DNA from: Sporopachydermia quercuum
Taxonomy: Eukaryota
Reading direction: 5' to 3'
Length of the DNA: 64,000 nt
NCBI GenBank assembly: GCA_001599295.1
Contig: BCGN01000004.1
Span: forward strand, 376,138 to 440,137
Position numbers and translations under genes: made by a program. Shown here piece after piece: positions 6,334 to 39,400 of this stretch. The notes below the pieces were generated by a model. It worked only from the letters and a program-made list of their open reading frames with translations, made no database searches and was not told the origin of the DNA. The first letter of the stretch is position 1, and each line of letters begins with the position of its first letter.

Positions 6334-7896
6334 TTACTCTTCTGGCTCAGGTTTATTCCAAGAAAGATAAGACTCATCTCCCAACTTCCTAGGATGGATA
6401 ACATGCGTGACAAGGAAAACGCCAGCGAGAAGAAAACATAAACCTCCAACGACAATCCAGGAGATACCTAAAAACAAGCTATGACCACCAATAACAGATC
6501 TCGTAGTAATAACGAATGATTTCTTACCATGAAATTCAAGGACAGGAAAATGTAATCCCACACTTATTTCATAAATCCCTGGCTCTAGATTTTCATCACC
6601 ATTACGTAAATGTAACTTCGAAAACTTTGGAAATGCTGATGTGGTCATCCAGTTTTGGAGTTCTTCCCATGTTTCAAGATCAGGTAAATTTTCCTCTGTA
6701 TAGCCATTAGGAAAAGCTTTTACCCAGTTTGGAGGAGGAACAACTTCTGAGGCATTGTATTTTGTTTTCTTAAATCTATTTTTATTTGCACTCCATGCGA
6801 TACCTTCATTGACCATAGAATAATTGCCAGAGGCTGATCCATTGACAGCAACAAAAGGTGCACTAAACGTATCATTGAACAAAGAATTGGCAATCAGTCC
6901 GCAAGGATAATATGGTCTACCATCTGGAGCTTTTGATAAAGGTGAGCAATTTATTGGTGTAGCTTCAATTGTACTTATGGAAGCAGCTTTACCATTAAGT
7001 TGATCTTCGGAGTAAGATTTCACGTAACGACGATGATTTTGATGAAAATTCTGTAATTGGTAATAGAATAACGTAGGAGCTCCCAATGTTTGCGGAACCT
7101 CGAATTGAACAACACATACTTGTCGCTCGTCTGCGTATGATATAGAATTGTTTGTTGTTAATCTCCATTGAGGATAATGATAGTTAGCAGGTAAATCGTT
7201 GCTGAAGCTGTATGAGAAATACTCTCTAGGAATCTCACTAAAAGTTGAAGTTGCTAGTGCTTCACATTGTGTGTATTCTATTTCAATCTGTTGAACCCGG
7301 TCACCACCATAAAGCATACCGCCTCCTAAAGGAATAAAAATTACAGCAATAGTGAGAAAAATAGGAATGATTGTTTTATATGTGATAATAGGACTAGAAT
7401 TTTGTTAGAGGTAATCTTAGAATGAGGAGAATACAAGTGCTTGCTGAAGAGTTTGTTGATAACTTTTAACTTACTGGTAAGCCTTTAATCGTTGCTGTCT
7501 GAAAGCATTCTCTGCAGAGAAACGTTAGTATAACATACTGTACATTTGATCAGCAGTGCGCTAATTTATATTGAAAAAAAAGGCCCGCAAGGTAGTAAAA
7601 TGAAAGGAATTAGCAATGATAATGCAAAAATAAGAAAAAGGTACTCCTGGTGCCTTGGAGGTCATGTAATTGATCCTCCTCACGGAACCTTTCAAATACC
7701 AGTATACTTGCATCACAGTTTCGTTCTCTTTTTATTACCATCTATCATAGTAGCGCTACATCAAATGCCTTTCAAAAGAAAATAAAGACAATGACTCACC
7801 TGCTGGTTTTCTGTTCTTTACTTTAACTGGCACCTCGGAACTCTCGGTATCTGAACCAGAGTCAGAATCTTCTTGATTTCGCCTCCTCAAGCCCAT
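6334..7896 (-). CDS. LEM3: Cdc50/Lem3-family flippase beta subunit; exons 7896-7800, 7511-7475, 7393-6334 (397 aa)
   Basis: Spliced N-terminus MGLRRRNQEDSDSG...KNRKPAENAFRQQRLKAYHPIIT; introns GTGAGT..TACTAAC..CAG and GTAAGT..CTCTAAC..TAG; Lem3-type motifs NHRRYVKSYSEDQ, YYPCGLIANSLFNDTF, GLHFPVLEF. Confidence 0.9.
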
Positions 7897-10858: not shown

Positions 10859-12303
10859 TCAGTTATAAGAATAAGTCTTGAACTGGGAAATTGACTCATC
10901 ATGCACTTGCGATTCTTCTAGAGGTGTAGCCAACTGTTGAGAGTAAGCTTGCTTTTCGAAAAGACCCTCATTCTCATTTATATGACTATGATTATGGCCC
11001 TGAGTATGACTGTGATTGTGAGCATCAACAGTTGATCCTGATATCATATTGTTATTAACAACATTAGCATCTCTGCTGATAGGAACTTTTCTTGTATATG
11101 ATTCCATTGTCATAGGTAAATAAGCATCAGGCTCATGTACATAAGTAGATGTGTTGATAGGAGTGGAGATGGGGATTTGATGATGGATTAGATGCTCAGA
11201 TCTTTGCTGGCCGTAAGAATCCTCTGAGGGGATTTGCTGTTGGGGTATATGATGATTAGGTGAAGATGTTCTTATTTGATACGTTTGAGAGTTGTATTGG
11301 ATTTGCTGTGATTGTTGAGAGTTTGATTGAGGTGGTTGATATGATTGATAAGGATTGGGTTGGAGTTGCGGGGAGATAGTTTGACTTGGGTTCTGCGTCT
11401 GATGCGTTTGGTATGTTTGCTGGTATAGATATGGGTTATTCTGTTGGCCCTGTGATTGAGCTAACTGAGCTTGTTGATGGAACTGTTGCTGATGCAAATG
11501 TAACTGGTGAGTCTGTGATTGAGATTGCATTGACTGTTGAAGACGCTGATTATGGTTCACATTAATATGAGGAGAAGAAAGCTGCGGTGTCTGTGATACA
11601 CTACGTTGTGATCTATGACCTTGCTGAGGTTGAAGATGCCCCTGAAAAGTTATCTCGTGCTGCTGTTGTGTCATTGGTTGTGGTGATTGATGCTGCTGCT
11701 GATTTTGATGCACTCCCAGCTCCGGTTGTGATTCATGCGTCAAGTGATTTCCCATAGCTATACTACTTTGTTCATGATTAGAATAAGCTTGTAATAACTG
11801 ATCATCCATATTGATAACCTGTTCAATTATACCATCATCTTCTCCACTACTAGCAGGATTGACAGTTGAGATATGCCACATGTTATAATTCTTCTCAGTG
11901 CTTTTAGTGTTCTTTGAACTATAAGAATCTCCTCGTTTCTCTAAACTTTCCTTTAATCTGGGCCGGCCGCGGAATCCGACTATTCGTTTCCCATTTTCTA
12001 CTTTAACTAGCTGCGATGAACCTTCGACATTCCTAGAATCATCGACATCAAATGATAATTTTAATCCATATCCTTGACATATTCTACCAGTAGAACGACA
12101 GTTATTACAAGCTGGTTTTGCTTCATCGCATTTCCTTCGTCTGAAAATGATTGTAAGTTAGTATTTGGCATTGGGAGTAATAACAGTAAACATTTTAGAT
12201 ATCCTATTGCATTAACCTACCTTGCTTTACAGGTCCAACAGCCTGTTCTCACTCGAGTTCTTTTTGGCTTGTCCGCAGGTTTTATAACTTTTTCATCAGT
12301 CAT
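10859..12303 (-). CDS. Zn2Cys6 transcription factor with Q/H-rich low-complexity C-terminus (TF-A); exons 12303-12221 and 12140-10859 (454 aa)
   Basis: Splicing intron 12220-12141 (GTAGGT..TACTAAC..CAG) gives RTRVRTGCWTCKARRRKCDEAKPACNNCRSTGRICQGYG, a complete six-Cys cluster in frame with the 340-aa Q-rich ORF. Confidence 0.9.
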
Positions 12304-15300
12304 TTTGTTGGTTCTTATTGCGGTATAAATTCTCCTGTCAAACCATTAAGCATTTATAAATGTGTATGAAACAAGACAATTGCTAAAAGTTCCTTTCAAG
12401 GTGATCAATAAACAGATCTAATTGATAGATGCCACTGTAATTTTTGCTGTTTCTATGTTTATACAGACTGTTCTTTGTTGGTCCTGAGGTATTGTATGAG
12501 CACGAAAATAGGTGCAAGTATCGGTATCAAAAGAATGAGTATGGCAATCTATCAGATCAGATGCAATTCTTTAAGCAATACAATACTGTTTGGAAATTGA
12601 TTAATTATTGGAAACTTAATACGTTTTTGATCTGATAAGTTCTAATTATTCCACAGAATAATATACAGAAGTTTCATGCCTTTTTTTTTTTGTTATAGCT
12701 AGCAAAATTGAATCTAAGCTATTATATCAACTGCCGTAGATTAAAAAATGAATCGCTAAAGAAACATTCAATTGATCGAGTTCTCACTGCTTCCAAGTTG
12801 ACCTACTCAATCAACTGCTTGGCTATCCATAAAACTAATAAACTAATATTCTTGAGTCTGTCTTCATATTCTAGCCGATTACTAATGATAAAAATCAATC
12901 AAATAACCAATGAATCAAAAAGAGAACTTAGCAATTAACCGAACAACCTAGTTGATTAACAATTGACCTAGTCGAGTCAAGTGATTTTTTTTCTATCAAG
13001 AAAAGCAATTGAAAAGAAAGAAGCAAGATCAAGTTATTAAGGAAGGTTCTTCACTCAAAAGCTTGCAATAAGTCAAACATAAGTTTTCCATTCAATCAAC
13101 AACAAAACCTGAATGAGATAAAAGTGATGTACTTAGTTACTTCTTTAACACACTTTTATTCTTTCCAGAAAAACATACGAAGTGAAATTCTAATTCCAGA
13201 AAGATGGACGGAAACGATATACTGTATCAATCATACATAATCTCTGATGGGTTTCTGAGAATCAATTTCTCGAAGGAGATTTATTGATAAATTAGAAAAT
13301 TGAGCTGTAGAAAGAGGGTTAGTAGGGATGACTTGATTAATGAAACAGGTGATGTTTGAAATAATCAAAACCTTGGACAATAGGTTTTAAAAAGGTTTAG
13401 TATTGAAACGGGAATTGAATGGCGTAGATGATAAAGAGAATCGTAAACTATTTGACCAGCAAGAGGAAAAATAAAAGGGTTGACGGATAAACGAACAATT
13501 TTGTTGCTTCGTAATAGCCAGAAGCTTAAGTACAGTGAATGAAATAAGGTTAAAGTGCAAAAGAGGAATTAAGTTTAAGGATTGGATTTAAACTTGCCTA
13601 GGACCAATTAAAGTTAGAGTACTCAAACGGTCAAACCGGCGATAGAATGAAGAGAGTGGAGTAAACAAGTGTACTAGATACTGAATGAATTTGAAGAGTA
13701 GGTACTGATAGATTGTCGAGAGGAAGTGCTAGGTAGACTGCAAAGAAATCAGGTGAAACTTGGGTGGAACTCAAGTAGAAATCAGGTGAAAATAAAATGT
13801 CAAGAGATCATAACAGTTAGGTAGAAACTTCTATTTATAGTTATTATGGTTGTGTTTAGGACTGTTTTGTTGTTAGGTAAGCAAAACTAAATATTTATGG
13901 TTCTGGAAATAAAGTCGGCTTCTTTATGTGTTTGTTTGAATTACTAGAACACCGAAAGATACTGTTGATCAGATAGTTTCGAACAACCTTTACCCTGCAT
14001 TTTCCAGTTTATAAAGGGATTATTAATACTTTAAAAATGATTAACATGGTCATTCAATTTATAACTGAGACGATTCCAGTGACAACATGGATAATGGAGA
14101 AGCCAATAATTATCAAACAATATAAGGTATCAAATATTCAGAGTAACTGTCACAATGGATACAAGTATAATACTACTAATTATGAGAATCATCTGAATCT
14201 TTTTCCCAATAAATATACCAAAATTTGCCTACTGAGGATTTTAGTAGTCTCCTTCATTATTATTGGAATCCCGTCCGTTGTTGCAATTTCACTTCGGTAA
14301 ATGTTATTGAAAGCTATTGCAGAGAGAACCCTGTCCTCAATCAACTAACTACACGAGAGTTGTACTGTTCTGGTTATTTCTTCTTCCTTTTGCTGCAAAT
14401 GTTATTATTACTTTAATGTTTTTGATTAGTCAAAAGTTTAATTCAAGCTTAGGGGTGGTATATGTATACTTAATGCATCTAGCGTTAAAAGTGAGAAACA
14501 AACTTCCTTTTTCTCTGCATAGTGAAAAAATATTAAAGAGAATTTGGCAAAACATGTCAAAACATGGTTAAATGTCTTCCCAAAAAGTGGAATAAATTCC
14601 TTAAACCTTTACTGATGAATTAATTCCTGTGGGGATTTGCAATAATTTATCTGGCTTAATAAATGAAAATTGAAGTGTTAGAAATTGAATGATGGACATT
14701 TCATTTCAGTGATAATAACGAGAACAAAGAGAGAAAACAGAGTAGCTAGTATAGTTCAATAGCTGAATTGGGAAACTCTGGCTGAGTTATTTTTTTCTCA
14801 AAGTAAACAATTAGGAACTGTTTTGGTTATGTGGTTAAATAATGGCAGGTTTATCCTACCCTATATTGAGAGTTCCCTAATTCTCTTTATCAACTGATCG
14901 TACTGTTGCTTTTGGAAAACTATTGAGTTGGAAACAAAAATAACGTTTAAAGTTATAAAGAAGGAGAAACATGTACCAAATAAGGAATCAGTTGAAATTG
15001 TAAATTGAGTGACAAAAATGGTTCTAGTAAAATTCAGCGAATAAATTTGATGTTTGAATAAGCTGAAATATTGCAATCTCATGCCTTGAGAGTTCTATTA
15101 TTTATTACACATCATTATACTTTAAATTATTCTTTATTTTGTATCCTTTTAACAAAAGGAAATAGATGCCTAGATAAGAAGGAGACACGAGGATTTTGTT
15201 CGCTAAACGAAACAACTGAAATTAAGCTCTGAATGTACTAGTACTACGAAGGTTTAAGTTGTGAGTGAAAATAGGAATAGTGTAGCCCATTGAGTATATG

Positions 15301-18300
15301 ATGTAATGATAGAATCAATAAGAATCAAAAGAAAAAATTTGGAGAGAAGTAATTGATTGGAAGTGATAGAAAATATAGCTACATTGAGTTGAGATGCCTT
15401 ATTTGGAAGGAATGGAATGTAGACTTCGAATGTATGTATCATATGTATACTCAGTCAACTTCTAACTGACAGATGTATCAAAGCCTGAGACATACGAGAT
15501 CAGTATGTGATCAACCAAGCCCAGTAAGATCGCATTAGAATTCTTTTGCGAAAAGAAAGAAAATGTGAAGAAGAATTTTGGTTTTAGCTTGTACTACTTT
15601 TTAGAAATGATGGGAGTGCTGTGGAGACTATGTAGAGTTTTGTGGGATTCCTCCTTAAAGTATTTATATTCGTAATTATAAATTGTTTGATACAGGTTTG
15701 ACTACATTTGGGGGCATCTTGCAAGTTTCTTTACTGTTCATAGTTGTTATGAAATCTTTTTACCAACTTGTGAATTTCATTGCGTTTCCTTTTGTTTGCA
15801 TTCTTAATTGAGTAATAACCGACGCTTATTCTCCTGCGTTAAGAAAATTCAGGTGAACCGCTTTAAAAAAGTAGAATGAATTTCATGATTCTAGCCCATC
15901 AGATAGTTTGACATTCAGTATAATGACTTTTTTTAAATTACAAATTTGTTTGGAGGCCATTAACAAAATGCAAGGAAATCCGATTAACGTTGAAGTTGTC
16001 AGTGAGACTTTTTTTATCATGTTTTAGAATGAATTTATTGTCCTTCTTGAAGCTACTAATGTCAAAAGAAAGATATGTTTGTTTCCACATTTCAAAATAT
16101 GTATACTGCTTATTAAAACGAATTGGACAATACTAGAGCCTCTTGGTTAAGTTACAGTGAACCATTTTCTAATATATTATTCATTTGTTTGTTGATTTAA
16201 TTTCTCATCAACTCTATGAAAACTCACTTACATTTAAGGTTTAATTTTAGATTGGAATGGAACCCTAAAAATAATGGCAAGTTCTGTTTACTTTCTTTCT
16301 GCTCATATTAGAGGGATCAACATGAAGAATTTCATAGACATTCGGTGTATGGTTCTACTTATATGATGTAGTTGCAAATCGAGAACTTGTTGTAAGTAAG
16401 GGTAGGTAAAGGTACCACCAATACTCAAATTATCATATCCTATATAAAACAAGGTGATTTGCCTATTACGAAACATAGGATTGAAACAAAACATGTACAA
16501 AAGAAAATCGAAAGAGTAAATTGCTTATTGAATTAAAAGTTATTTTAGATTAAAGATTCGGAAAGCCACTAGTTTGAATTCGATACGCTTCATTCATATC
16601 ATACTTACTTTTGATATGACAAAAAACTGTGCGGTTAGTTTTCTATTCTCGTGATTCATTGTCTTAGCGAAATGATAAGTAATTAAGACTCTCTTAGGGA
16701 CAAGTTCATTCTCCAAGACAAATGTCTACCTGCTTGAATTCTCAGAGATAGTCTTCTTCTGAAAACTGCTTTTCTAGGAAGGTTAGTGAGCACCAAACTA
16801 TACTGAAATAAACCTTAACTCAAACTTATCGTGAAGTACGTAAATTTTTCATCTGGGCAATTAGATCAGAACAAAATTTTATCAAACAGAATTGATATAT
16901 ACGCACATTAAAGGTTAGAATCTCATTATATTAGAAATCGTTTGAGAAAAATTAAATAAAGGTCTCTCTTATGAGAAGATAAAAAGAGACAGTATAAAGG
17001 CTTATTGAGGTTTTGTTTTGCTGAATCAATGAATCAATTTACTCTGTTGAGCTATATATAGCTTTCAAGCCGTCGTTCGAACAAAAGTCCGATGTTACAA
17101 ATAGGAAAGTCGATAAGATGGCCGGGTTTTGAGATTTCTTGATTGAAGCATACGGACATCAAAATATTCTGGGTCAATTTTATGGAGAAGAAAAATGGTT
17201 TCTCACTTCCGCTGTTTCAAGGTTTTGTTAGTTTTGCTTTTGATGTAGAGCTAAATAAGGTAAATGTAGTGAGATAGTCGAGTTTAATTTGAATCCTGAG
17301 AGTTGAGCAAAGATGAGAGGATATATATTTCTTGGTACCACTTTGTTGAAAAATCAGTTTGAAACACTGAAATAGATGTTCAAGGAATGTATGTACTTTT
17401 AATTGAGATCATGAAAATATAGAGAAGTATGGAAATTAATAAAAAGAGTAGGTGAAGTGCTATTAACTTTGATTTGGTACATTTGTGCTTGGTTCATTGA
17501 CGGATAGCAATCCGCTATTAACGCTTTGTTAGGTTATCAATCATGAGTACACGAGTTATAATGCTGTAACAATATCTGTATTAGAATCAGTGATTTGCTT
17601 CCCACCTTCAATAGACACCTTTTCCTTCAATTTTGTCAGCCTTAGAATGAACTAAATTGCATAGCCACCATATTGTTGTATAAAGTTCATTTCTCACACA
17701 ATAATTATAACAGGTATGAGGTAAAAATAGTTAACTACCTGATTATTGTATTGGAAGAAAAGTTGTAACTAGGATTGGATATCTCCTTAACTTTCGTTTA
17801 GAATCTATTTTCTCATTTTTTCTTCTTAGAGAACCAAAAGGTTTGACACTTCATACGTTAACTAGATACTTAGAGCAGTTTAATCTTTAATTTGATGCAA
17901 TATGTTATCAATTCTAACTTATTCTATATTTGTATTTACAAAATCTAATTTCAAAAGTTGACTCCAAAGAATTGATAACCTAACAGCAGCATGTTTTGCA
18001 TGTTAGGTTATCTGTGAAAACAAACACAAGAGTACCAATAATTACTAGTATCTCTATAACATGATTCTTCTTACCGAAAACCAAACAGCAAAGCAACTTC
18101 ATAGTTCTATTAGGAGACTCAGAGGAGCGGAAGTCAACATTTTGGAGCTTAAAGGTCTGACTAAACTAAACTAATCAACCCAATAACTATGGGGGTTAAA
18201 CACTGACCTTCAGTACATCAAGATTTACAATTTCAGCTAAGTTGGTTAGTTTGAAACTCAATTTTACAACTGACCTTTTGATCTTGCTCTTGAGTCATAA

Positions 18301-21008
18301 TACATAACGAATTTTAAACGTTATTTGTTTTAAACCATTTAACATGTTAATCTTATTTTAATCAAATAAAATTGAAACAAAGTTTGATTTTAATATGCAA
18401 CTGTGCATCGTAAGACTTGAAAGGAAAGAGAATTTTTAACGTTTGCTTCTATAATTTATATTCTACACGATTCATACTTGAGTTATACTATATTAAAAAC
18501 CAATTAGGCAAGTAATCTTGATCAATTGAGAGTTAGTTGATTTATAATGAATCGTGAAGCAAAACAATATGGTATACAATGAATGAAATAACAATTAATT
18601 TGACGTGTTCTATTTGAAATTGGTTTATTCAATATAGCTCTAATTGTGCTTCCTAGCCTTAAAATTGTAGTATTATGATTGGGCATAGAATCAGTAGAAA
18701 AGTATCATATACAATTCAATTGTATAATTCAATTGAAACTTAGAAATTAACCTTCAACTAATTATTCATTATATTTCAATTGATTTTGCTTTCCTTCTTT
18801 TATGATTCAAGACAGTTTATCCAACTAGAAGCTGACGGATTAAACACAATGGGTCTATAAACTACAACTGTTACTAATTATTGAAAGGTTTGCCTTCTTT
18901 TGGGCATTTCACAGGAGTGATTCCATGCAGAGAACACCTGAATGTTCATAAATTTGATGAGAAGACCAAACCAATATATCTGGTTCTGAAGAGTTAATCA
19001 TAACAAATGGTGGAATAATTTAGAGTACAATCAAACGCGCTCCGCTCCTTCTTGGTCTGCACTCTTAGAGAAGGAATAGCTAATGCACTAGGGTTCTTCT
19101 TACTTTTTCTGGTGAATAGGATATCTCTTATCTTTGTTAGGCTTCACGGTGATTAGTTTGGTTGATAATTCTTTGAAGAAATATGGTTCATTGGATATCT
19201 AGTCTGACTTCATTGTTTATGAGTAGAATTCAATTGAGTGTAATCATTTGTTTGATTCAAAAGGATCAAATATTTTGTTCTGCTTGTTCTTGTGATAAAT
19301 TAATCTCACTTGATAATAGTTAATGTTATAGTGAAGCACTTGTCAAATGATGGATCAGCTGTTCAACCTTTAAATTTAGTTTCCGTTTCTTCTCTCAAGA
19401 ACTGTATGTTCAAAAAAACACTGATAAAAAATTGAAACACAGAATTAAACAAATTCAATTCAGAAAGAATATCTGGTTTCTAGGAATCTGAGTGAATTGT
19501 TGAGATACCAACTTTTCAAGATAATCAGATAAAGCTCCAGAGCTATAGAAGTTGGAATTTAGGAACAAAAATATCTTTTCATAATTGAGTTAAACCCAAT
19601 TCGAGTCGCTTCATAATACACCCTAAATTTCAATGAACCATTTATATATTTCTGCAAAAAAGGAACCCCTAATGTTCTCCAGTAGGAATTGAATTGGCAT
19701 CATTTACGTTTGTTTACGAAAAATATCAATTTTTTGTTTCCATTTTTCATATCTGAGTGGAAGCTAGGAACCTCGACAAGTATCAGTTTCCAAGGCTTCT
19801 AAGTCCAAAAACATATCAGTTCTGTGGATCTTATTAATTGGTATATCTGTATGTCACTGTTGTTAGTTATCAGAAAGCTTTTACGGTAGAAGCAATCTTA
19901 TGGCTTCATAGAAATTCAAAGGTTCAATATCTTGATGTGTTTGATTCGCCATCTAAACGTACCTTATAGGAAGTTTGAAAATAGGTACGCTGTATTTAAG
20001 AAAGATGGGGTCCAGAGGCTGAATTGAGTATGAGAACTTTTAAGATTCTGATTTCATGTCGAAGGCTATGTGAATGTTTTTTTCTTCTTCCTTCCTTCGT
20101 TTTTGTCTGGTTCCCAGTCTCAAGGGGAACTAGTCTGAGTAATGAGTCCAGAGAGAAAACACTTGATTGGATGATTGGCATTCAAATGCTGGTAGGAAGT
20201 CGTTACATAATTACTTAATTTGACGCTTTGAAACTTTACGATCAGCTTGAAAGAATATGTACAGAGACGATCATTTTTATCTTTAATTTTGATAACTTTT
20301 CACCAATAATCAGAATTGACTAGATATACAACAAATAGTTTATTTTTGAAGCAAACCACAAATCAAGTCAATATTTTGCCTCTCTGGATGGCATTCATAA
20401 GTCGATTAGTTCTCAGTAATTAATTCGTCATGGAACAACTAAAACTTTACAGTTCAGGTCTCTGGTCGAGTAAAAAGGTACTAAAATATGGTTATGGTTT
20501 AAACAAGTATGTTTGAATAATCTCAACTGAACCTTAATGTTTCAAATCCAATTACCTAACCTTGTTATTACTAGAGCAATTCTTGCCATTGAATTAACTT
20601 TTTAAAAAATGGTGTTAACCTTAAATTTGATTTTAACTTCTTTTGGTGTTTCCCCGTAACCTTACTTATTCTATAATCAATCAGACAATAATTGTCTGAC
20701 GTTTTCTATTTTTCTCACCCAATTGAAATGTATCAACAAAACTACTTCATTGTCGGATCATTTATTCAAAAAAATTGTTAATTGAGTCCCTTCGTTTCAA
20801 ACAAACTCACCTTTAAGTGTTTAATCGCAGTTCCTGATTTGATCGCAATCTATTGTCTTAAATAGAGAAACAAAAACCAGTCAAGTATTCTATTTATCAT
20901 TTCCCGACGCTATGANCAATTAAGGCCTAGTAATTCTACGTGTATATTTTTTTTATAGTTATTTGAGTAGTACCTCTTCTCAAAGCTAGTAGTATATTCC
21001 AATAGATT

Positions 21009-21033
21009 GAAAGGAAAGGAAAGGAAAGGAAAG
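21009..21033. repeat. (GAAAG)5 microsatellite downstream of TF-B
   Basis: gaaaggaaaggaaaggaaaggaaag read directly. Confidence 0.85.
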
Positions 21034-21145
21034 AAAATCTACTGAAATTTTGAATAAATTTTACAATTTCCACACAACATCAATACCTGCTTCTGTTCTT
21101 ACTCCTATTCCTGTTATTTTTGTAGGACACCTAACAAAAATGCTT

Positions 21146-24100
21146 CTACAATGGCATAATCTCAATCCCTTGGCCAAACCATTGGTCACTTGCTAGAATA
21201 TCTTCTAATTCGACATCAGATACCCAAATTTCATCAACAACATCAATCATGCTTTTCATATTTCCAAATTTATATGCATTGAACGACTTCTCCATACGAA
21301 TCCTTAAGAACTGTCGGTCTGTGGGGTTTTTGGCCTCACAGCATAGTATAAATATTGGCCAAATCATCTGTACAACAACAGGAGATCTGATATTCATTTC
21401 TTGTATAACACAAGTGAATTCTCTAATTAATGGATTAATTGTTTGATGATACTCTTTTCTGTTCAATGGAAATGGTATACCTTTCTTCTCAAATTCGTTC
21501 TTAGAATCATTATTGCCAACTCTAGTAGATTTCCTAGATTCCTTCATGTTCTCGCTACTGTTGTTAGTAGCATCAACGTTGACAGTGCATTTTCCGCTTT
21601 CTAGTTGAGGAAAATATAAAAGAACTGTTTTCAAAAGCCAAACAATTGTTGCCAAAGACCAGCATTGAGCACATCGTAAATTATCATAGTACGTAGAAGA
21701 CTTATTGTTGATTCCTGCCTCACTTTCAGTTTCGTTTTCATTGTCCTTTTCTTCTTCCATCCCTTCATTGAAAGGAACAAAATCCCTATAGGAAACCAGA
21801 GTAGTTTTCATTTTGGTAAACTTTTCAATGGCATCAGCAGCAGTGATTTTATTGTATCTCAACTCATTTCTGAAAAACGATAACTGGTTGATTGTTTGAA
21901 ATATCTCACCAGGACATCCGTTGACTGAAAACGTTGATATATTGAATATCTGATTTACTGATGACTTTGATCCTAGAAATTTACCATTACAGTGAGGTGA
22001 TCTACAATCTGGTGATATGACCGATATTATAGTGTCAAACCATGTGATGTGGCAAATAATCACAGATGAATGATCGATTTTAATGATCGAGTTGTATATC
22101 GATTCATTGCTCAACATTAATCCAACTGTTTTCAGGAATGGCCTTGTAAATGATGATTTTCCTGATTGAATAATGCAATAGATCATGTATATGTACACCA
22201 GCAGAACAATTCGGAAACTCCTATTATGACCTGGCTCGATATTAATGGTAGAAGCATTTATACTGCCATTAACTTGTTGAGAGTTTCCATCCTGGCTATT
22301 CAAACCATAATTTTTGTTTTTGCTCAATTCTTTATCACTGATATCAATATCATCATGGCTTTGCTGTGAATTACTCAAAAAGTGGTTTATATTAATAGAT
22401 GTCAATGATTTATGAAAATAGTTCTCTTCAATTGGTACCCAGTTGTGAAAGCAAGCAATTCGAATGATGGAACGTAATTTAGTAGATAAATTACTCAAAC
22501 TATCAGCATAAATGAGTTCCTTAATACTAATTGTCTTATCCTTATTACGACCTTTCCTATTAGTGGCTGGGTTTGAATTATTAACTGTTGCTAATATTCT
22601 AGAAAAAATATCATTTTGGTCGTCGTGTTCAATCAAGCCGTTAATATCGCTATTGCTACTCTTATTATCTATCGTTAACAATTCATTGATAAGAGCAATA
22701 ATTATATGATCAAATTGAATAATAGCTTGGGTGTATAATACAGAGGTATTGTCAATCCAATATAAATGAGAATAAGATAATGCTAAAAATGAAACTCTTG
22801 CTGTATCATAATTCAACTGTTTTATAGTCAAATGAGGGAAAGGAGTTCTTTCTAGATTGTCAATTATTGGCAGTAAATAATTGAAAAAGTGTGATAGAAC
22901 CTCATTTTCTTCGTCGTAAGATATTTTCTGATCAACAAAAGTTTTATAGTCAATATTTACTTCACAAATGGTTTGTAGAGACAAAATTATATCTTCAACT
23001 GGTTCCAATAGTTCAGAGGTAGTATCGTCGTTAGTAGAGATAAGATTCCTTTCCTCTGTTGTGATGGAACTTTGAGACGATGTTGTATGTTGGTTGTATG
23101 TATTTTCGATGTCATTTTTGATAGAATTTGTGAAGTAATCGCTATCAGATAAATGATTAATGATATTAAATTTTCCTGTAGTATTAGATTTTGTTTCGTT
23201 AAGATTGGTGATAGAATCGTTACTGACAGCAATGCTACTGCTTTCAGATGGAATTTTAGAAGCATGCACTTGCCCGATATAGTCATTATTGAGACTCTTC
23301 GTTGGCTCACTTTTAGAACCTATAAATTCAGGACTATTGTTAAGGTGNGGATTTAAATGAATAAAAGGTGTTTTCGTAGAAGGTAATGTCATTTCTAATG
23401 ACATAGTAGTGACGTCACTTGAATCCATCGAAGAATCAGTTGTTGTAAGGCCATCTGAATTCAAAATGCTGGCTAGATGGTGATGGAGATGATGATGACG
23501 CTGATGATGAACATTTTCAGTTGCCTTCGTCTGATGCTTCTGAGCAATAATATCATTGTTACTATTTTCTTTACAAGGTTTTCTTTTCTTGAAATTACTG
23601 TCAGTAACTACAACTTCATTCTTTTTTCCATTATTCTTCAGCTTCTGTTCGAACGCTTTTTGATCTGATATTTTGAACAGAAGATCTTTGTTTTTTCTAC
23701 TATGTTTATCTAGTGACAAATCATTTGTTATTGCTGTAGCTGGTGTTGTGCCATTTATGAACGCTTCATTTACAGAAGTACCGGTATTGTTCCCGTTCTC
23801 ATTGATATTGCCAGTGTTATTCCGGTTAGGTGTAGATACTTCGTCTCTTTTGGCAAGACTCTCTTTCAGCCTTGGACGACCTCTAAACCCTATGATCTGT
23901 CTTCCTTTCGAATTAATCATAATATGATTGCTAGAGATATTTCTTGAGTCATCGACATCAAATGATAATTTTATACCATAACCTTTACATTCTCTTCCCG
24001 TGCTTTTACAATTATTACATATTGGTTTGGTCTCATCGCATTTTCTCCGTCTGAAAAAATGGTTAGTCAATTGCTATATCCAAATAGGGAAGAGCTTCAT

Positions 24101-24175
24101 TTGAAAACATTCAACAATTACTCACCTTGCTTTACAAGTCCAACAACCAGTTCTAACTCTTGTCAGTTTGGTCAT
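21146..24175 (-). CDS. Zn2Cys6 transcription factor with long C-terminal fungal-specific regulatory region (TF-B); exons 24175-24126 and 24050-21146 (984 aa)
   Basis: Intron 24125-24051 (GTGAGT..GACTAAC..CAG) joins MTKLTRVRTGCWTCKAR to RRKCDETKPICNNCKSTGRECKGYG; C-terminal WFDTII, NGCPGEIF and WPIFIL motifs resemble the Fungal_trans_2 domain. Confidence 0.9.
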
Positions 24176-29031: not shown

Positions 29032-31065
29032 TTAGATGGCTAGAATAGGCTTATCGAAGTTCATTTCACCACAAACATCAACAACAACATCAGTTTGAGG
29101 AATCAAAATGCCCTCAAAAAAGTGTTCAACTTCTTCAACTCCCTTTTCATTAACTTCAGTAACTAATGAAACATAACCGTCTGGTCGAATGACAGCAAGG
29201 ACAGCTTTATTAATGTCGAGACCAAAATGCTTATAAACGTCAGACGGCCCATTCAAATACGATTCATCATTACCAGCATAAACTTTCCAATAGTCGGTTC
29301 TATTCTCAGAATCAACAGGTCTATAACTATAAGGAATGTCATCATACCATTCAATATCAACCCTCTTGGATCCATGGATTAATATATTTTCAACTACACT
29401 ATCGTAGCGGGCACCCTTTGGAGTAAATTTCTTATAAAAACTCTTTTCACCACTCAAGTATTCATCCAACCAGTAAAGTGATTCTCTCAAGGACTTATTG
29501 TTAGTGTAGTCACCAGCAAAATTAATAACTCTCCATCGCCCATCTGATGGCATTCTATCAGCTAATAATAAAGCTCTTGCATCAGATTGAGTAATAACTA
29601 AACAATCATTCTTGAACCTTCTTCCAACAGGTAAATTAGTGGCGAAACTGGTATTATAGATATCTTCTTCATCATAACGCGGATTCTTTTCTAATTTAGG
29701 CTTGACTTCAAGAATTGACTGCTGATAATCAACAGTACAACCTGAAGCAAATTCGCTACCTTTTCTATAAGTATATCGGAACTCTTTCAAATCAATACCA
29801 TCTTTACTGCCAGGGCTTGCAGCCTTACCAGAAAATAATCTTGACAGCTTATGATCAAATGTAATCAAATCCCTTGCTACTTTCAATCTTTCACTTTCAT
29901 ATGTTTCCAATAAGTCAGGCTTTGCTAATCCTTTGCAAACATAAGCAAGTTTCCAACCTAGGTTATAAGTGTCCATCATGGAAATATTCATACCTTGACC
30001 AGCTTTTGGTGAATGGGTATGGCAAGCGTCACCAGAAATGAATACTCTGTTTGCCTTTTGAAAGCTTGGAGAGACTCTTTGGCCTATTTGATAACCAGTG
30101 TACCAATCCAAATCAGTGATATCAAAAGTATATGGATGGAAAATTTCCTTTGCGGTGTTAACAATTAGTTTTGGTGTGATTTTACTTCTGTCAACACGTG
30201 CAGTGCCAGGAATTGTAGGCAAATCCTTTAATTGAATGTAAACCCTAACAATACCCTTTTCCCTGGGAATAATCATAACTGAACCGTTGTCTGAATGAAT
30301 AGCACAACGATGTCTGATATCGGGAAAATTAGTAATTGGAACAGCATCGATAACACCCCAGATAAAATCAGTAGATTCTCCTTCAATTTGAATGCCTAAT
30401 TGTTTTCTGACCCAAGAATGAGCACCGTCAGCTCCTAAAACATACTTGCAATGAATGATTTCCTTTTCGTCAGTTCCAACTATTGCATCATCCTCGTTTT
30501 CGGATATGAACTGTCTGAATAAACCATTATTACCTTCACCAGTATTACCTTGAGGGTTTGCTTCTTCCTCAGTCAATTTCTTGATGGTAACACTTACGGG
30601 ATATGCTGATTGATCGTCTAGTTTTGTCTCATCGAGATTCAAGTCGATTGGCAAGTAAGGTCTTTCAACTTCCTGTTCATTATTAGACCAAAGAGCAATA
30701 GCATCTTGAATCCATTTTTCAATATGTCCTTGATGGATAACAACCTGCTGATATCTCGACATACCAGGAATAGAATCTGATTGTCTCCAAGTTCTTTCAA
30801 TTCCGCCTTTGGGACTAGGATCCCAAAAAACCATTTCAGTTGTATGGTTTGCTTCTGTCCAAGGTTTATGACCAAATCCAAACGAATCAAACACTTCTAA
30901 AGTACGAGCTTGGAGACCGTCTGCTTGACCTGAAAAAATCTTACCTGATCTCTTGTCGATAATTCTAAACGGAATACCACAGCGTGCTAGCCAATTAGCA
31001 CACATAAGACCTGAAGGTCCTGCACCAATTATGAGGACATCTGTTTTTGATTCTTTAACTGCCAT
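29032..31065 (-). CDS. FAD-dependent phenol 2-monooxygenase (phenol hydroxylase family)
   Basis: 677 aa; DVLIIGAGPSGL, GQADGLQARTLE, GADGAHSWVR, GDACHTHSPKAGQGMN and C-terminal RPDGYV thioredoxin-like domain. Confidence 0.92.
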   Translation of the reverse strand: MAVKESKTDVLIIGAGPSGLMCANWLARCGIPFRIIDKRSGKIFSGQADGLQARTLEVFDSFGFGHKPWTEANHTTEMVFWDPSPKGGIERTWRQSDSIPGMSRYQQVVIHQGHIEKWIQDAIALWSNNEQEVERPYLPIDLNLDETKLDDQSAYPVSVTIKKLTEEEANPQGNTGEGNNGLFRQFISENEDDAIVGTDEKEIIHCKYVLGADGAHSWVRKQLGIQIEGESTDFIWGVIDAVPITNFPDIRHRCAIHSDNGSVMIIPREKGIVRVYIQLKDLPTIPGTARVDRSKITPKLIVNTAKEIFHPYTFDITDLDWYTGYQIGQRVSPSFQKANRVFISGDACHTHSPKAGQGMNISMMDTYNLGWKLAYVCKGLAKPDLLETYESERLKVARDLITFDHKLSRLFSGKAASPGSKDGIDLKEFRYTYRKGSEFASGCTVDYQQSILEVKPKLEKNPRYDEEDIYNTSFATNLPVGRRFKNDCLVITQSDARALLLADRMPSDGRWRVINFAGDYTNNKSLRESLYWLDEYLSGEKSFYKKFTPKGARYDSVVENILIHGSKRVDIEWYDDIPYSYRPVDSENRTDYWKVYAGNDESYLNGPSDVYKHFGLDINKAVLAVIRPDGYVSLVTEVNEKGVEEVEHFFEGILIPQTDVVVDVCGEMNFDKPILAI

Positions 31066-33337: not shown

Positions 33338-34369
33338 ATGTCTGTTCTTGTCTCTGGTGCCACAGGTTATATCGCTCAACATATTGTTGATCAACTACTG
33401 GAAAAGAATTACACTGTAATTGGCACAGCTAGATCTAAGAGCAAAGGTGAATCTTTAAAACAACAGTTCCTCGAGAAATATCCCAATTCCACTCTTCAAT
33501 ATGAAATAGTTGAAGATATTGGCATAGAAAATGCATTTGACGATGTTATTCGAGCCCATCCTGAACTAAAATACATTATTCATACTGCATCTCCTATCGT
33601 ATTTGAAGCTACAGGGGACGAGGCAGACAAAGCTTTGCTGGCTCCTGCTTTGAATGGAACAAAAGGAGTTCTATCGTCAGTAAAGAAGTATGCGCCGCAA
33701 GTTGAAAAATTCGTTCTTACGGCCTCAATTGGGTCCATGCTTCATTGGGATGAGGCCGGCAATCCAAACTTTGTTCATACAGAAGAAACATGGGCAGGCT
33801 ATGATTGGAAAATAGCTAGGGAGGATACTTCTACTGCCTATGGTGCATCAAAAGAATATGCTGAAAAGGCTGCTTGGGAGTTCGTTGAAGACGAAAAGCC
33901 CAACTTCACACTAACTGTTATTAACCCATTCCTGGTATTAGGTCCTCATGTGTTTCAAGAGACTGCAAAAGCTGCAACAAATTTTTCAACCACCTGGGTT
34001 ACCAAACTTTTGAAATCAGAACCCACTGATACCAGCAAATTTGCTGCAGGTATAGGCACTTTTGTTGACGTTCGTGATGTCGCTAAGATTCATGTCTTAG
34101 CATTAGAAAGAGACATCTCTGGACGTAGATTACTGTTATCGGAAGATGAAACATCTGATCAAAAAGTCCTCAATGTTATTAATGAAAACTTTCCCTCATT
34201 AAGGGGTAAAATAGCTGTTGGCCAACCAAACTCACTGAACGATGAGGAATTTCTGAGTCAGAGATTATATATTGATAATAGCAGGACTAAGGAGCTTTTG
34301 AATTTGGAGTTCATACCATATGAAAAGACAATTATTGATCTTGTAAAACAAACTATAGACGCTGAATAA
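33338..34369 (+). CDS. NADPH-dependent methylglyoxal/aldehyde reductase, Gre2/Ari1-like extended SDR
   Basis: VLVSGATGYIAQHIV, IHTASP, YGASK catalytic YxxxK, FVDVRDVA. Confidence 0.9.
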   Translation: MSVLVSGATGYIAQHIVDQLLEKNYTVIGTARSKSKGESLKQQFLEKYPNSTLQYEIVEDIGIENAFDDVIRAHPELKYIIHTASPIVFEATGDEADKALLAPALNGTKGVLSSVKKYAPQVEKFVLTASIGSMLHWDEAGNPNFVHTEETWAGYDWKIAREDTSTAYGASKEYAEKAAWEFVEDEKPNFTLTVINPFLVLGPHVFQETAKAATNFSTTWVTKLLKSEPTDTSKFAAGIGTFVDVRDVAKIHVLALERDISGRRLLLSEDETSDQKVLNVINENFPSLRGKIAVGQPNSLNDEEFLSQRLYIDNSRTKELLNLEFIPYEKTIIDLVKQTIDAE

Positions 34370-35200: not shown

Positions 35201-36253
35201 ATGCCTTTAGCTCCTCCTTCTCCTCCAGTCATTTCCAAGACTATTGGAAAAGGTAAATTTGAAATCTCAGAAGATGAGAAATATGCCTATGTTCCTAAGA
35301 CTAGCTCAACAAAGCCAGCAATGAAAGTAACAGCTGAAGACTTGACAGTTACAGCTCCTGTTACAACTGAAAAGGTTGAGGCAATGATCAAGAAATACGG
35401 TGGTTGTGTTATCAAGAACTATTTACCAGTTGAAGATTGCAACCAAATTTTGGAAGATGTATCTCCTACTTTGAATCAAGATAGAGCGTGGGATGGTGAT
35501 TTCTTCCCACCAGAAACTAGAAGATGTACGGCATCCTGCTCTAAGTCAATTACCTGTGCAGAGAAGTTTCTAGCCCATCCTTTAAATGTTGCTTTATCAC
35601 ATAAGTTTTTGGGCAAGGAATCTTGTAACTGGCACGGAGAGAAGATTGTTCGTGGTTATTCTCCTCCTCAATACAACTCGTGTATTACCTTCAGAATTGG
35701 ACCTGGTGCTAAGAACCAAGTTCTTCACAGAGATGATGATCTCCACCATACTTATCACACTAACGTTGATGAGTATGAATTTGGTCGTGATACTGCTTTA
35801 GGATCAGTTCTTTGTTTAGAAAAGGCAACTAAAGAAAATGGCGCTACTAGATTCATTCCTGGTTCACATTTATGGGATCATTTTCGTCAACCAAAGGAAG
35901 AAGAATGCGTCTACGCTGAATTGAATCCTGGTGACTGCTTCTTCATGTTGGCCTCTTGTTTCCATGCTGGTAGTGCCAACCAGACCACTGACGAATACAG
36001 AACTGTTGCAATATTATTTATGACTCAAGGAACCTTGAGACAAGAAGAGAACATATTTGCCTCAACTGATATGGAGTACTTCAAGAAGTTATCGCCACTG
36101 CCATTGAAGCTTATGGGATGGACAACTTCAGATCCTTTCTGCGGATGGGTTGGTCTTAAGGATCCTTTGAAGATGGTTGCACCTAATGAGGTTGATGATC
36201 ATGCAGTTGATGATTTGTATGCTGGTTCATACATTCCTGTGTTGCAAGAATAA
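35201..36253 (+). CDS. Phytanoyl-CoA dioxygenase (PhyH)-family Fe(II)/2-oxoglutarate dioxygenase
   Basis: First ATG at 35201; IGPGAKNQVLHRDD (HxD), NGATRFIPGSHLW, FHAGSAN, LRQEEN. Confidence 0.88.
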   Translation: MPLAPPSPPVISKTIGKGKFEISEDEKYAYVPKTSSTKPAMKVTAEDLTVTAPVTTEKVEAMIKKYGGCVIKNYLPVEDCNQILEDVSPTLNQDRAWDGDFFPPETRRCTASCSKSITCAEKFLAHPLNVALSHKFLGKESCNWHGEKIVRGYSPPQYNSCITFRIGPGAKNQVLHRDDDLHHTYHTNVDEYEFGRDTALGSVLCLEKATKENGATRFIPGSHLWDHFRQPKEEECVYAELNPGDCFFMLASCFHAGSANQTTDEYRTVAILFMTQGTLRQEENIFASTDMEYFKKLSPLPLKLMGWTTSDPFCGWVGLKDPLKMVAPNEVDDHAVDDLYAGSYIPVLQE

Positions 36254-36447: not shown

Positions 36448-39400
36448 TCACTTAGATACTTGAGATTTCATGGACATCAAAGTGTCAGCTCTAGTTAATT
36501 CTGGTAACTCAATTGATGTTCTGGTCAAACCAAAATTCTCTGGTAAAACACCAGCTTCGGTTAAAGATCTTCTAGTTACTTCTAAGGACCTTCTTATTGC
36601 TGATTGAGGGTGAATTTCATGATCTTCATCATATCGTAATATTGGTGATAACACTTTATTTTGATCAGCATTATCTCCTTCATAGGCATCAACGGAAAAT
36701 TCAGATCCATTGTTATCTCCAAACCGTTCACCAAATCTAAACTGTGGTGATGTAATTGGAACGACATCTTCAGCATAGTGCACGCTTCTTCTATTTCTAT
36801 TCAAACTCATTCTATTCATACTCTTTCTGAACTTATTCTCTTGTGATGAAACAAATTCTTCACGTTTTGTCATTTCATCTTCATATCTCATTTCTTGTTG
36901 GAGTTGTAATCCAATCTTTTTCATATTTGGGTCGGTAGGATCATAATACTCCGGATAATGAGCAAACTTCTTTGCTGCCACTTGTTCACGAATGATATCA
37001 ATATCCTTTGGCCTATAAATCTTCTGTACAACATCATAAACAAGTCTAGGCAATAGACATCCCATTATCCCAACAAAATTAACCGCCCAAAATCCAGGAG
37101 TGCCAAAAATTTGAACTCCCGCTTGATAAATTTCCTGAGCATGAACTCCTGCTGACCACATCAATGTCCATAAATATAATGCAAGAATTGATATAGCAAA
37201 TATTAATAATGAAAGCCAATCCCACCGATATTGATGTAATAATACATATACATTAACTGCACATACAGCAATACAAGTAACAAAAATTCCAACATAGTAT
37301 CTTTGATCTAATGGTAACCCTGTTGAAGTAACAAATGGCGAGTAAGTGTACAGCACAAATGGGAAAAAGAAACAAATAACTGATTGATACAAGCCATCAA
37401 GCATATACAACCAAAACTTTTTTTGAGTCCATTCTGATCGGAGAATACCGGTTCGATAAAGTTCAGGAACCATTAAGGACACCACAGCAGAAACGTCTTG
37501 ATCAAAGACACCCATTAGAATAACAGGTAAAGATGTGAAGGCTAGATTGTAGAACATGAGATACGTATATTCAAATAGATATGATCCATCGAAGTTGTTG
37601 TAAATTCCATACCAGTATAAAGCCATTGTGTAAACCTCGTTCTTCAAAAAGAAGCAAGGAATTAGTTCGGCCAAACGTTTGTAAGACCATCTACCATGAA
37701 CTAGGACTAATCGGGTTAAGAATCTGAATTGAGCAATAGCATAGTCAGAAGACATGGCTGCTTGTCTTCCTTCTTCACCAGCGATTCCAACTCCAACATC
37801 AGCAGATTGAATCATAGCAACATCATTTGAACCATCACCAATAGCTAAGGTCATTACATCTAAAGTTTCTTTCACTAGTTTAACAACAGATGCCTTTTGA
37901 GCAGGGGAAACTCTACAGCAAAGGACAGAACGACAGAATTTACAAAGCAGTAAAAATTTTTCTGCAATTTCTGTTGTAGATAATGCAAGTTTTAATGCAT
38001 CACCATCAATCACTACAGCAAAATTACCTGATGGTGGTGAATGATCCTTTTTGATCTCTTCAATATGATGATAATAATCGCCAGAGATTTTGAAGTAATC
38101 AGATAAATACCCAGAAATCAATCCATCTATCGCATCAACTGGGTTTTTATCATTTTCATCCTCATTGAGTCTTATAACAAGTAGTTCCATACCATTTTCA
38201 AGCAGGTTACACGAAAACCCAATGTTGACTGCTGTTTCAACTTTATCCCCCGTAAGGACCCATAGTTTGATACCAGCTTCAGCCAATAAAGCAATTGAAT
38301 CAGGTACACCGTCCTGCAATCTATCCTCAATTGCAGTGCCACCTAATAGTGTCAAATTTCTTTCAATTGAATCGGCAACAGCTTCCATTTTCTCTTCTCT
38401 GTCTTTGATTGCTGCTGCTGCTTCTTGATGTCTTCTATCCCATTCTTCATATTCTTTCAACGAGATTTCTCTTTCGGCAATACATAGAGTACGAAGACCC
38501 TCACTTGCAAATTGTTCTAATTGCAAAGCTGTTTTTTCTAAAAGTTCATTGTCTGAATTATCGCTTAATCTACTATAAATCACGCTATCAGCGCCCTTAC
38601 ATATAAGCAAGATTTTTGGATTATTAGTATCCTTTCCGGGAATTTTGATAATAACACTCATTCTCTTTCTTGTGGAATTAAATTCAAGAGTATTGAGGAC
38701 TTGAATCTCTTGTTTCTCACCTTGACTATCAATCACAAGTCCCCTCTTTGTTCTTTCAATGAAAGAGAAGCCAACATCACGAGCTGTAGAAACTAAGGCC
38801 GCCTCGTCTGGAGATTGAGCTTTGAACTCAATTCTCGTTGGGTCCTTTCTGCTATACTCAGTTAACACAGAATGACAAATAGCTAAACAAAGCATGAAAT
38901 GATAGTTAGCATCTTTTTGGGCACCTCCCCCTTTGCCTAATAAATCATAAACATAATCTGAAGATACAAATGTTAGTTCTTCATCTCTTAGTTGAGGATT
39001 ATCATTAATTTTTCGAAGTTCTCGTATCATCTGCGCTTTATCTTCAGCAATCTGTTCTTTCATCATTTCAGCTTCAGCATGAACATCTATTCCTTGACGT
39101 TTCCTCAGTCCTGCAAATGCTTCTGTATATGCTTTCCCATACGTCTTACTGTTGATAGTACATTTCTTGAACTCCATTACATTCTGAGTTAACGTTCCTG
39201 TTTTATCAGAAAATATATACTCAATTTGACCTAAATCGTCTGAAATATTCCACGTTTTAGGCGTGCAAGGATAATCCAGCTTTTCAGAGTACATCATAAC
39301 ATCAGAATAGATGAAGTAGGCTTGTAAGGTTTTGATAATTTCTATAGAAATGTACAATGAAATGGGCACTAAACTTTGGTATAGAATAATACCAATGAAA

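Follow-up and report, generated by a model that had tools for sequence, protein, structure and literature searches.

The DNA analysed here, called the window, is a 64,000-nucleotide segment of a budding-yeast chromosome from Sporopachydermia quercuum (contig BCGN01000004.1). Two of its minus-strand genes encode putative Zn2Cys6 transcription factors, TF-A and TF-B. Comparison of the predicted proteins confirmed that they are true paralogs, with a conserved, presumably DNA-binding head and unrelated C-terminal parts. The best explanation of the whole, for which we put the chances at about even, is that TF-A is a duplicate of a TF-B-type gene that kept the head and carries a Q-rich tail in place of the C-terminal domain. 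The pair represents ordinary duplication and divergence, not a new kind of system. The gene models and their heads are as follows.

10859–12303, minus strand: TF-A gene, 454 residues
12221–12303, minus strand: TF-A exon 1, 83 nt, Met1 through base 2 of codon 28, holding Cys1 and Cys2
12141–12220, minus strand: TF-A intron, 80 nt, phase 2, GTAGGT ... TACTAAC ... CAG
10859–12140, minus strand: TF-A exon 2
11930–12140, minus strand: head part of TF-A exon 2, residues 28–98, with Cys3 to Cys6, LSFDVDDSRN, a predicted beta-hairpin and the GFRGRPRLKESL motif with its AT-hook-like RGRP core
21146–24175, minus strand: TF-B gene, 984 residues
24126–24175, minus strand: TF-B exon 1, 50 nt
24051–24125, minus strand: TF-B intron, 75 nt, phase 2, GTGAGT ... 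GACTAAC ... CAG
21146–24050, minus strand: TF-B exon 2
23846–24050, minus strand: head part of TF-B exon 2, residues 17–85

Both introns carry yeast-type splice signals that read as intact, and both split one and the same Arg codon, in phase 2, after C-K-A inside the zinc cluster. Since Cys1 and Cys2 are encoded in exon 1 and the other four cysteines in exon 2, splicing is needed to unite the cluster. The spliced spacing in both predicted proteins is C-X2-C-X6-C-X6-C-X2-C-X6-C, which agrees with the Zn2Cys6 pattern (PF00172) C-X2-C-X6-C-X5-12-C-X2-C-X6-8-C; orthologues carry PF00172 in their precomputed annotation. The start codon of TF-A has an A at position -3, and the N base at 23348 leaves a single X in the TF-B protein.

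The head common to the two genes spans about 95 residues, and its similarity is far above chance. BLASTP of the exon-2 proteins gave 52 identities in 81 residues (64%, E 1e-31) and nothing better than E 4.6 beyond the head. The lack of a second segment places the end of the similarity at about residue 100 in TF-A and about residue 90 in TF-B. At the nucleotide level, the introns and 5' flanks can be aligned at the splice signals only. An earlier sequence-only reading of this DNA had described two peptides common to both genes, an intron at the same phase-2 position, divergence after about 90 residues and a 25-bp identity. All four observations hold: both peptides are present in TF-A and in TF-B, the divergence falls at the residues just given, and the 25-bp match is exact.

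12039–12063: 25-bp stretch identical to 23949–23973, coding for KLSFDVDD
23949–23973: 25-bp stretch identical to 12039–12063

This run is the sole word of at least 14 nt that the two genes share. When the proteins were held fixed and codons were redrawn from the usage of the window (20,000 simulations), a fraction of 0.013 reached 25 nt, with a median of 13 nt; the identity is mildly unusual, at a marginal level. It could be due to chance, to a very old micro-conversion or to a constraint at the nucleotide level. The sequence-only reading had also raised the prospect of promoter or domain swapping by recombination between the copies. This found no support: the repeat finder detected two matches between the heads (122 nt with 78% and 45 nt with 82% identity), the longer of which has the 25-nt run as its exact core, and this run is too short and isolated for recombination between copies to be a serious expectation.

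The shared intron has a broader distribution. Among the 31 orthologue rows of the head alignment, two predicted proteins (P0018 and P0033) contain read-through inserts exactly after C-K-A-R, and four models (P0006, P0030, P0036 and P0041) are truncated or garbled at the intron codon. Such models point to an unrecognised intron at that codon in the orthologues and, as the group includes relatives of Lipomyces, the intron would predate the spread of the family. We infer that its position is ancestral to the family, with nothing special about the TF-A/TF-B pair.

The head is strongly conserved in both copies. TF-A and TF-B each keep 37 of the 37 columns that are conserved in at least 80% of the 31 rows, and 28 of the 28 conserved at 90%. 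Among these columns are those of the six cysteines, of the residues from Cys2 to Cys3 and of the two motifs that follow the cluster. The Cys2–Cys3 stretch, which from Gal4 structures we take to be the DNA-contacting part, is identical in the two proteins. We read this conservation as purifying selection on the head in both genes, and it is plausible that TF-A and TF-B read similar DNA.

The TF-B family and the origin of TF-A

Beyond its head, TF-B contains the following parts.

22934–23845, minus strand: N/S/T-rich linker of TF-B, about residues 86–389
21146–22933, minus strand: C-terminal family domain of TF-B with lineage-specific inserts, and stop codon
21221–21934, minus strand: Pfam Fungal_trans_2 match in TF-B

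The Fungal_trans_2-like region that had been noticed in TF-B was recovered by Pfam (PF11951, 59.6 bits against a cut-off of 21, E 3.3e-16), and TF-B reached an Atlas score of 0.96 to PF11951 clusters. A word-index search returned 15 family proteins with TF-B as the query and 24 with TF-A, and an exhaustive HMMER search with TF-A returned 20 at E ≤ 0.001 among 1.84 billion representatives. The family ranges from the Lipomyces group to Pichia-like yeasts, with members in Wickerhamomyces, Cyberlindnera, Pachysolen, Ogataea, Candida boidinii, Ambrosiozyma, Brettanomyces, Lipomyces and Dipodascopsis. None of these relatives is a named or characterised protein, all source annotations being hypothetical or generic. 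Full-length members have 550–1100 residues and consist of the head, a variable and often Q-rich linker, and a conserved C-terminal domain of about 400 residues that ends in G-I-D-F/Y-L-P-L/V. A profile built from 24 orthologues matched TF-B from end to end (491 bits, profile positions 1–650), with large lineage-specific inserts in TF-B. On these grounds, TF-B reads as the full-length representative in this yeast of a small family of predicted Zn2Cys6 regulators, conserved among budding yeasts and so far without a name.

AlphaFold2, run with a 30-row alignment on TF-B residues 253–984, predicted an all-helical domain interrupted by inserts of low confidence, with a predicted local distance difference test (pLDDT) score of at least 90 in 290 of 732 residues. 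A Foldseek search of the PDB with this model gave 0 matches at E ≤ 0.001, and a profile search of PDB sequences gave zinc clusters only (11 matches at E ≤ 1, the best being RSC3 at 5.5e-7). With no link from either search, the ligand regulation that the sequence-only reading had considered for TF-B is a guess from its Pfam membership alone.

Errors are frequent in the public gene models of this family: besides the read-through models described above, five from Ogataea angusta (P0019–P0022 and P0025) are R/A/G-rich from part-way on and look frame-shifted.

In the family head, the cluster is followed by LSFDVDDSRN, then by a short variable spacer with K-G and lastly by GFRGRPR(L)KESL. This last motif lies about 30 residues past the cluster. 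TF-A and TF-B agree fully there in an R-G-R-P core set between basic residues, and nearly every aligned row retains a G-(R/K)-P core. The AT-hook consensus has the same R-G-R-P core with basic flanks and binds the minor groove of AT-rich DNA. A literature search found no paper that links an AT-hook with a Zn2Cys6 cluster, and the broader matches on AT-hooks, zinc clusters and fungi that it listed were off-topic by title.

TF-A has the head motifs of this family and not its C-terminal domain. The family profile matched TF-A at the head only (158 bits), with low posterior probabilities past about profile position 105, and nothing was found against profile positions 235–650 with all filters off. 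Pfam likewise gave no Fungal_trans_2 match in TF-A. Relics of the domain were sought with tblastn, using nine orthologues plus TF-A and TF-B as queries: at E < 1 and in any frame there was none at TF-A, in the 700 bp downstream or between 12.3 and 21.1 kb, and the domain was placed at 21.1–22.9 kb only, inside TF-B. Two weak plus-strand matches of family orthologues at 45617–45697 (E 0.02 and 0.5) were probably due to chance and were discarded.

TF-A is a head-only derivative, and the direction of the change can be read from a tree of the heads, built on 83 columns of 31 rows. It joins TF-A and TF-B as sisters with support of 97/98, on branches of 0.78 for TF-A and 0 for TF-B. The sisterhood and the branch lengths point to a duplication inside this lineage in which TF-A is the more derived copy. 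The heads differ at 24 positions, the commoner family residue being in TF-B at about 10 of them and in TF-A at 2–3, and the spacer from the cluster to GFRGRPR differs by one residue. Over the 94 aligned codons of the shared head, the proportion of synonymous differences (pS) is 0.77, which is saturated, and that of nonsynonymous differences (pN) is 0.24. Identical residues use the same codon in 29 of 62 cases, against 26.5 expected from codon usage. The saturation of synonymous sites shows that the duplication is old.

Other relatives of the TF-A type, with a head only, were sought among the matches that lack PF11951, and none was found. One of these is a fragment on a 1.5-kb contig (P0007), six others are the Ogataea models P0019–22 and P0025 just described as frame-shifted or the shortened model P0040, and the last two (P0042 and P0043) are unrelated clusters.

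The TF-A tail and the interval upstream of TF-A

In place of the C-terminal domain, TF-A has a tail with two distinct segments.

10859–11929, minus strand: TF-A tail, residues 99–454 and TGA stop
11780–11827, minus strand: acidic, hydrophobic segment of TF-A, residues 133–148, modelled as a helix with low confidence
11264–11743, minus strand: Q/S/H/P/T/N/Y-rich core of TF-A, residues 161–320, with 55 Q in 170 residues

The tail had been described as Q/H-rich and of low complexity, in agreement with its composition over residues 111–454 (19.8% Q, 12.2% S, 8.4% H, 7.8% N and 6.7% P). Windows of 80 residues hold up to 36 Q+N in TF-A, with 93 of them reaching 30; in TF-B the maximum is 18 and 0 windows reach 30. 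With at least 30 Q+N per 80 consecutive residues, presumably the usual threshold, the predicted tail has a Q/N-rich, prion-like composition. Residues 228–317, 90 in all, are devoid of D, E, K and R. The AlphaFold2 model of TF-A, made without an alignment, shows a beta-hairpin just before R-G-R-P, a helix at residues 133–148 and Q-rich helices at about residues 224–251. Overall, the tail of about 345 residues is nearly uncharged and probably disordered, and residues 133–148 are a candidate activation motif. Condensate formation by TF-A, another suggestion of the sequence-only reading, is not supported here.

The reading frame of the tail has been maintained. Over its 343 codons there is no stop in the sense frame, versus 13–47 in the other five frames, and its H, N and S codons are used much as in the window's 15 other genes. 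Of the tail's 68 Gln codons, 57% are CAA and 43% CAG. As each is one C-to-T change from a stop and the duplicate is old, the open frame suggests selection on the protein. TF-A appears to be an old, maintained gene, not a relic. Microsatellite expansion was rejected as the origin of the tail: the longest Q run is 3, CAA and CAG are mixed, and Tandem Repeats Finder reported a single weak 9-nt array.

No homologue of the tail was found among the 1.84 billion representatives; in all 20 matches, the best stretch begins at query residue 1–3, and the few that run past TF-A residue 100 do so at low identity. The 24 word-index matches cover 12–24% of the query. A Pfam scan found no domain in the tail, and the best score of an Atlas search with it, 0.81, is at chance level. 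Since the linkers of the family are often Q-rich with an acidic, hydrophobic motif, the simplest idea, put forward without support from an alignment, is that the C-terminal domain was lost and the old linker grew.

TF-A is preceded by an exceptionally long stretch that lacks genes.

12304–21145: interval separating the start codon of TF-A from the stop codon of TF-B, 8,842 bp, GC (guanine plus cytosine) 30–35%, the minimum of the window

No stop-to-stop open reading frame (ORF) in it is longer than 107 residues, and the next gene-free gap of the window, 3.9 kb, is under half as long. Stop-to-stop ORFs of 50 residues or more that overlap the interval number 36; Pfam was run on 26 of them, leaving out those that overlap the two genes and a few of 50–51 residues, and no match had an E better than 0.04 or reached the cut-off. 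The interval has 0 tRNAs, 0 Rfam matches and no repeat longer than 29 nt besides the two of the gene heads. Plus-strand GC skew is mostly positive at 13–17.5 kb. The interval may serve TF-A as a very long regulatory region, contain a locus for a non-coding RNA or act as a regional centromere.

The sequence-only reading had further imagined a switch-like circuit in which both factors read the same site. CGG/CCG pairs at spacings of 0–15 number 96 in the window and five in the three intergenic regions that flank the two genes, with no enrichment and no recurring spacing in either upstream region; this part of the proposal was not borne out. Searches for enriched k-mers in the interval gave weak candidates only (e.g. 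ACCTAAC, 7 versus 2) and no recurrent words.

Possible roles of TF-A

We propose that a same-strand duplication of a family gene in this lineage gave rise to TF-A, which would have retained its exon 1, the ancestral intron and the head in full, with a Q/S/H/N/P-rich tail where the C-terminal domain is absent. The head would still bind a family-type DNA site. TF-A would act via its tail (the acidic helix and then the Q-rich region), most likely as an activator, and what the Fungal_trans_2 domain may sense or bind would no longer affect its output. Because of the 8.8-kb non-coding stretch upstream, its control has probably shifted to its own transcription. The targets of TF-A and TF-B would be expected to overlap partially, not completely. 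In the cited part of a survey of S. cerevisiae paralogs, having a DNA-binding domain in common is no predictor of common targets (PMC9000951).

Several points weigh against this account. Transcription and splicing of both genes are predicted from the DNA alone. On the exon-2 fragments, the Pfam Zn_clus (PF00172) scores of 19.5 bits for TF-A and 19.0 bits for TF-B stay below the cut-off of 21; the matches cover positions 10–32/35 of the 39 in the profile, and the low scores are explained by Cys1 and Cys2 being encoded in exon 1, outside the scanned fragments. The R-G-R-P core and its basic flanks resemble an AT-hook in both heads, but Pfam AT_hook gave no match to the 34-residue peptide at E ≤ 1. 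The head tree rests on a short alignment, its bootstrap did not fully converge, and the concentration of all post-duplication head change on the TF-A branch could mean relaxed constraint or changed specificity. In the model of TF-A, pLDDT is below 50 in 399 of 426 residues, but as these low values extend to the head fragment, such a single-sequence model is poor evidence of disorder. A role as activator over one as repressor is a presumption. There is no TF-A orthologue among the database matches, so that selection on the tail is deduced and not measurable. Missing orthologues are themselves weak evidence: an exact look-up in a collection of 15 billion proteins found 0 of five window proteins, and the best match of the highly conserved 2-methylcitrate dehydratase is 81% identical (77–79% for the best named matches, from Magnusiomyces, Geotrichum and Sugiyamaella). 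The searched databases must therefore lack the proteome of any close relative, which limits every statement here on absence in other species.

A separate circuit for TF-A is an unlikely alternative. TF-A would have left the circuit it shared with TF-B and, through a changed motif preference or a tail-directed choice of promoters, would serve its own gene set. This would fit the 24 head differences, the one-residue change in the spacer and a TF-A branch that bears all of the change (0.78 versus 0). It would also fit the behaviour of yeast zinc-cluster paralogs, pairs of which often shift their motif variant, with divergence mostly outside the DNA-binding domain, as far as the cited part of the S. 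cerevisiae survey goes (PMC9000951). However, the Cys2–Cys3 stretch and all columns conserved in at least 80% of rows are unchanged, and the differences between the two heads sit in columns that vary among the orthologues too.

We consider it improbable that TF-A is a competitor, as the sequence-only reading had considered, or a dominant-negative form that occupies TF-B sites via the shared head and blocks or buffers TF-B. The two genes are neighbours on one strand, and a head fully conserved at family-invariant positions in a protein that wholly lacks the C-terminal domain is what such a role would call for. Yet a pure blocker needs the head alone, and here a stop-prone, Q-rich frame of 345 residues has stayed open for as long as synonymous sites took to saturate. 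In addition, an acidic helix followed by a Q-rich region is of a type usually tied to activation. Among S. cerevisiae paralog pairs, competition for DNA is rare and weak according to the same part of the survey (PMC9000951).

Very doubtful is a more far-reaching picture, in which TF-A would be a master regulator with a prion-like tail and an 8.8-kb enhancer-like region, forming a memory or bistable circuit with TF-B on shared sites, and GFRGRPR would be an undescribed AT-hook arm coupled to the zinc cluster. It recalls the cell-fate regulators of C. albicans (white-opaque, biofilm), to which the cited part of one review attributes prion-like domains and unusually large upstream intergenic regions (PMC7793994). 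The Q/N-rich, uncharged region of TF-A and the 8.8 kb free of ORFs upstream of it are similar. However, there is no homology between these regulators and TF-A, which is known only as a sequence, and the resemblance is an analogy. Moreover, the C. albicans clade reads CTG as Ser, whereas the yeast of the window decodes it as Leu and so lies outside that clade: of the seven CTG codons in the printed part of an alignment of its flippase gene to S. cerevisiae Dnf1, four correspond to Leu, one to Ile, one to Gly and none to Ser or Ala, the remaining one being poorly aligned.

Finally, it is hardly credible that TF-A is the non-functional remnant of a partial duplication, with a head left over or kept alike by gene conversion: the tail has no orthologue, domain match or expression support and the 25-bp run, somewhat above the length expected from codon usage (P 0.013), might reflect a short tract of conversion, but saturated synonymous sites and chance-level same-codon use indicate no ongoing conversion, pN is low with all 37 conserved columns kept, the tail is free of stops although 68 Gln codons are one transition from a stop, and the splice signals and the A at -3 are intact.

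Taking TF-A again as a head-only duplicate with a tail of its own, the pair can be compared with known systems. TF-B shares a zinc cluster and PF11951 with PRO1 and RosA/NosA, and both heads show the C-2-C-6-C-6-C-2-C-6-C spacing found, according to the cited part of one study, in nearly all DUF3468 proteins of one fungus (PMC6471507). In that same part, 70 C6 proteins of one fungus lack the 'fungal specific TF' domain and just 23 of these have DUF3468/PF11951, and the A. nidulans PF11951 paralogs have opposite outputs, RosA being a repressor and NosA an inducer (PMC6471507). Both RosA and NosA retain the C-terminal domain, unlike TF-A. Neither PRO1 nor another named factor came up among the relatives, and orthology to one of them would be conjecture. 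S. cerevisiae pairs of the Upc2/Ecm22 type show a similar asymmetric divergence, in which the less conserved copy gains new behaviour, as described in the cited parts of two papers (PMC9000951, PMC5412356). They differ in stemming from whole-genome duplication, in being unlinked and in having the same domain architecture, whereas TF-A and TF-B lie 11.9 kb apart on one strand and TF-A has a low-complexity tail in exchange for its whole C-terminal domain.

Zinc-cluster proteins without the fungal-specific domain are common. Less usual are a head-only protein whose full-length parent is recognisable in a nearby gene, as with TF-A, and a replacement tail that is long, maintained and of prion-like composition. 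Should TF-A act in the proposed way, the two genes form a clean natural experiment in which one head is placed on a folded Fungal_trans_2 domain and on a disordered Q-rich tail, and it could separate the share of the head in target choice and output from that of the rest of the protein. The TF-B family, with no named member and an AT-hook-like motif beside the cluster, may deserve characterisation.

The rest of the window

Catabolic-type genes lie beyond TF-B. A phenol-hydroxylase-type flavin adenine dinucleotide (FAD) monooxygenase is encoded about 5 kb from it (29032–31065, minus strand), followed by a member of the nicotinamide adenine dinucleotide (NAD)-dependent epimerase/dehydratase family (33338–34369) and a PhyH-type dioxygenase (35201–36253). 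Zinc-cluster regulators frequently adjoin catabolic genes under their control, and these three genes are candidate targets.

The window has about 35% GC and 18 ORFs of at least 150 residues in its 64 kb, a low gene density for a budding yeast. Outside these 18 genes, ORFs of at least 70 residues number just nine window-wide, and the gaps at 24.2–26.8, 31.1–33.3, 41.6–44.3, 45.7–49.6 and 51.6–53.9 kb are nearly devoid of them. Recognisable genes include those for eRF1, a Dnf1-type flippase, Cdc50, a Pab1-like protein, a Snf5-like protein and phenol hydroxylase. Single N bases occur at eight positions (8579, 20916, 23348, 31316, 31361, 33063, 43989 and 56158) and look like ambiguous or masked sites, not assembly gaps.

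The Cdc50/Lem3-family gene (6334–7317) and the Dnf1/Dnf2-type P4-ATPase flippase gene (36448–41598; 1826 bits against S. cerevisiae Dnf1) are 29 kb apart, and their products are of the types that make up both subunits of one lipid-flippase complex. On the minus strand at 44260–45738, an ORF of 492 residues has no Pfam match, and the density of CGG/CCG peaks in the kilobase around it, at 19 per kb versus a mean of 7.4.

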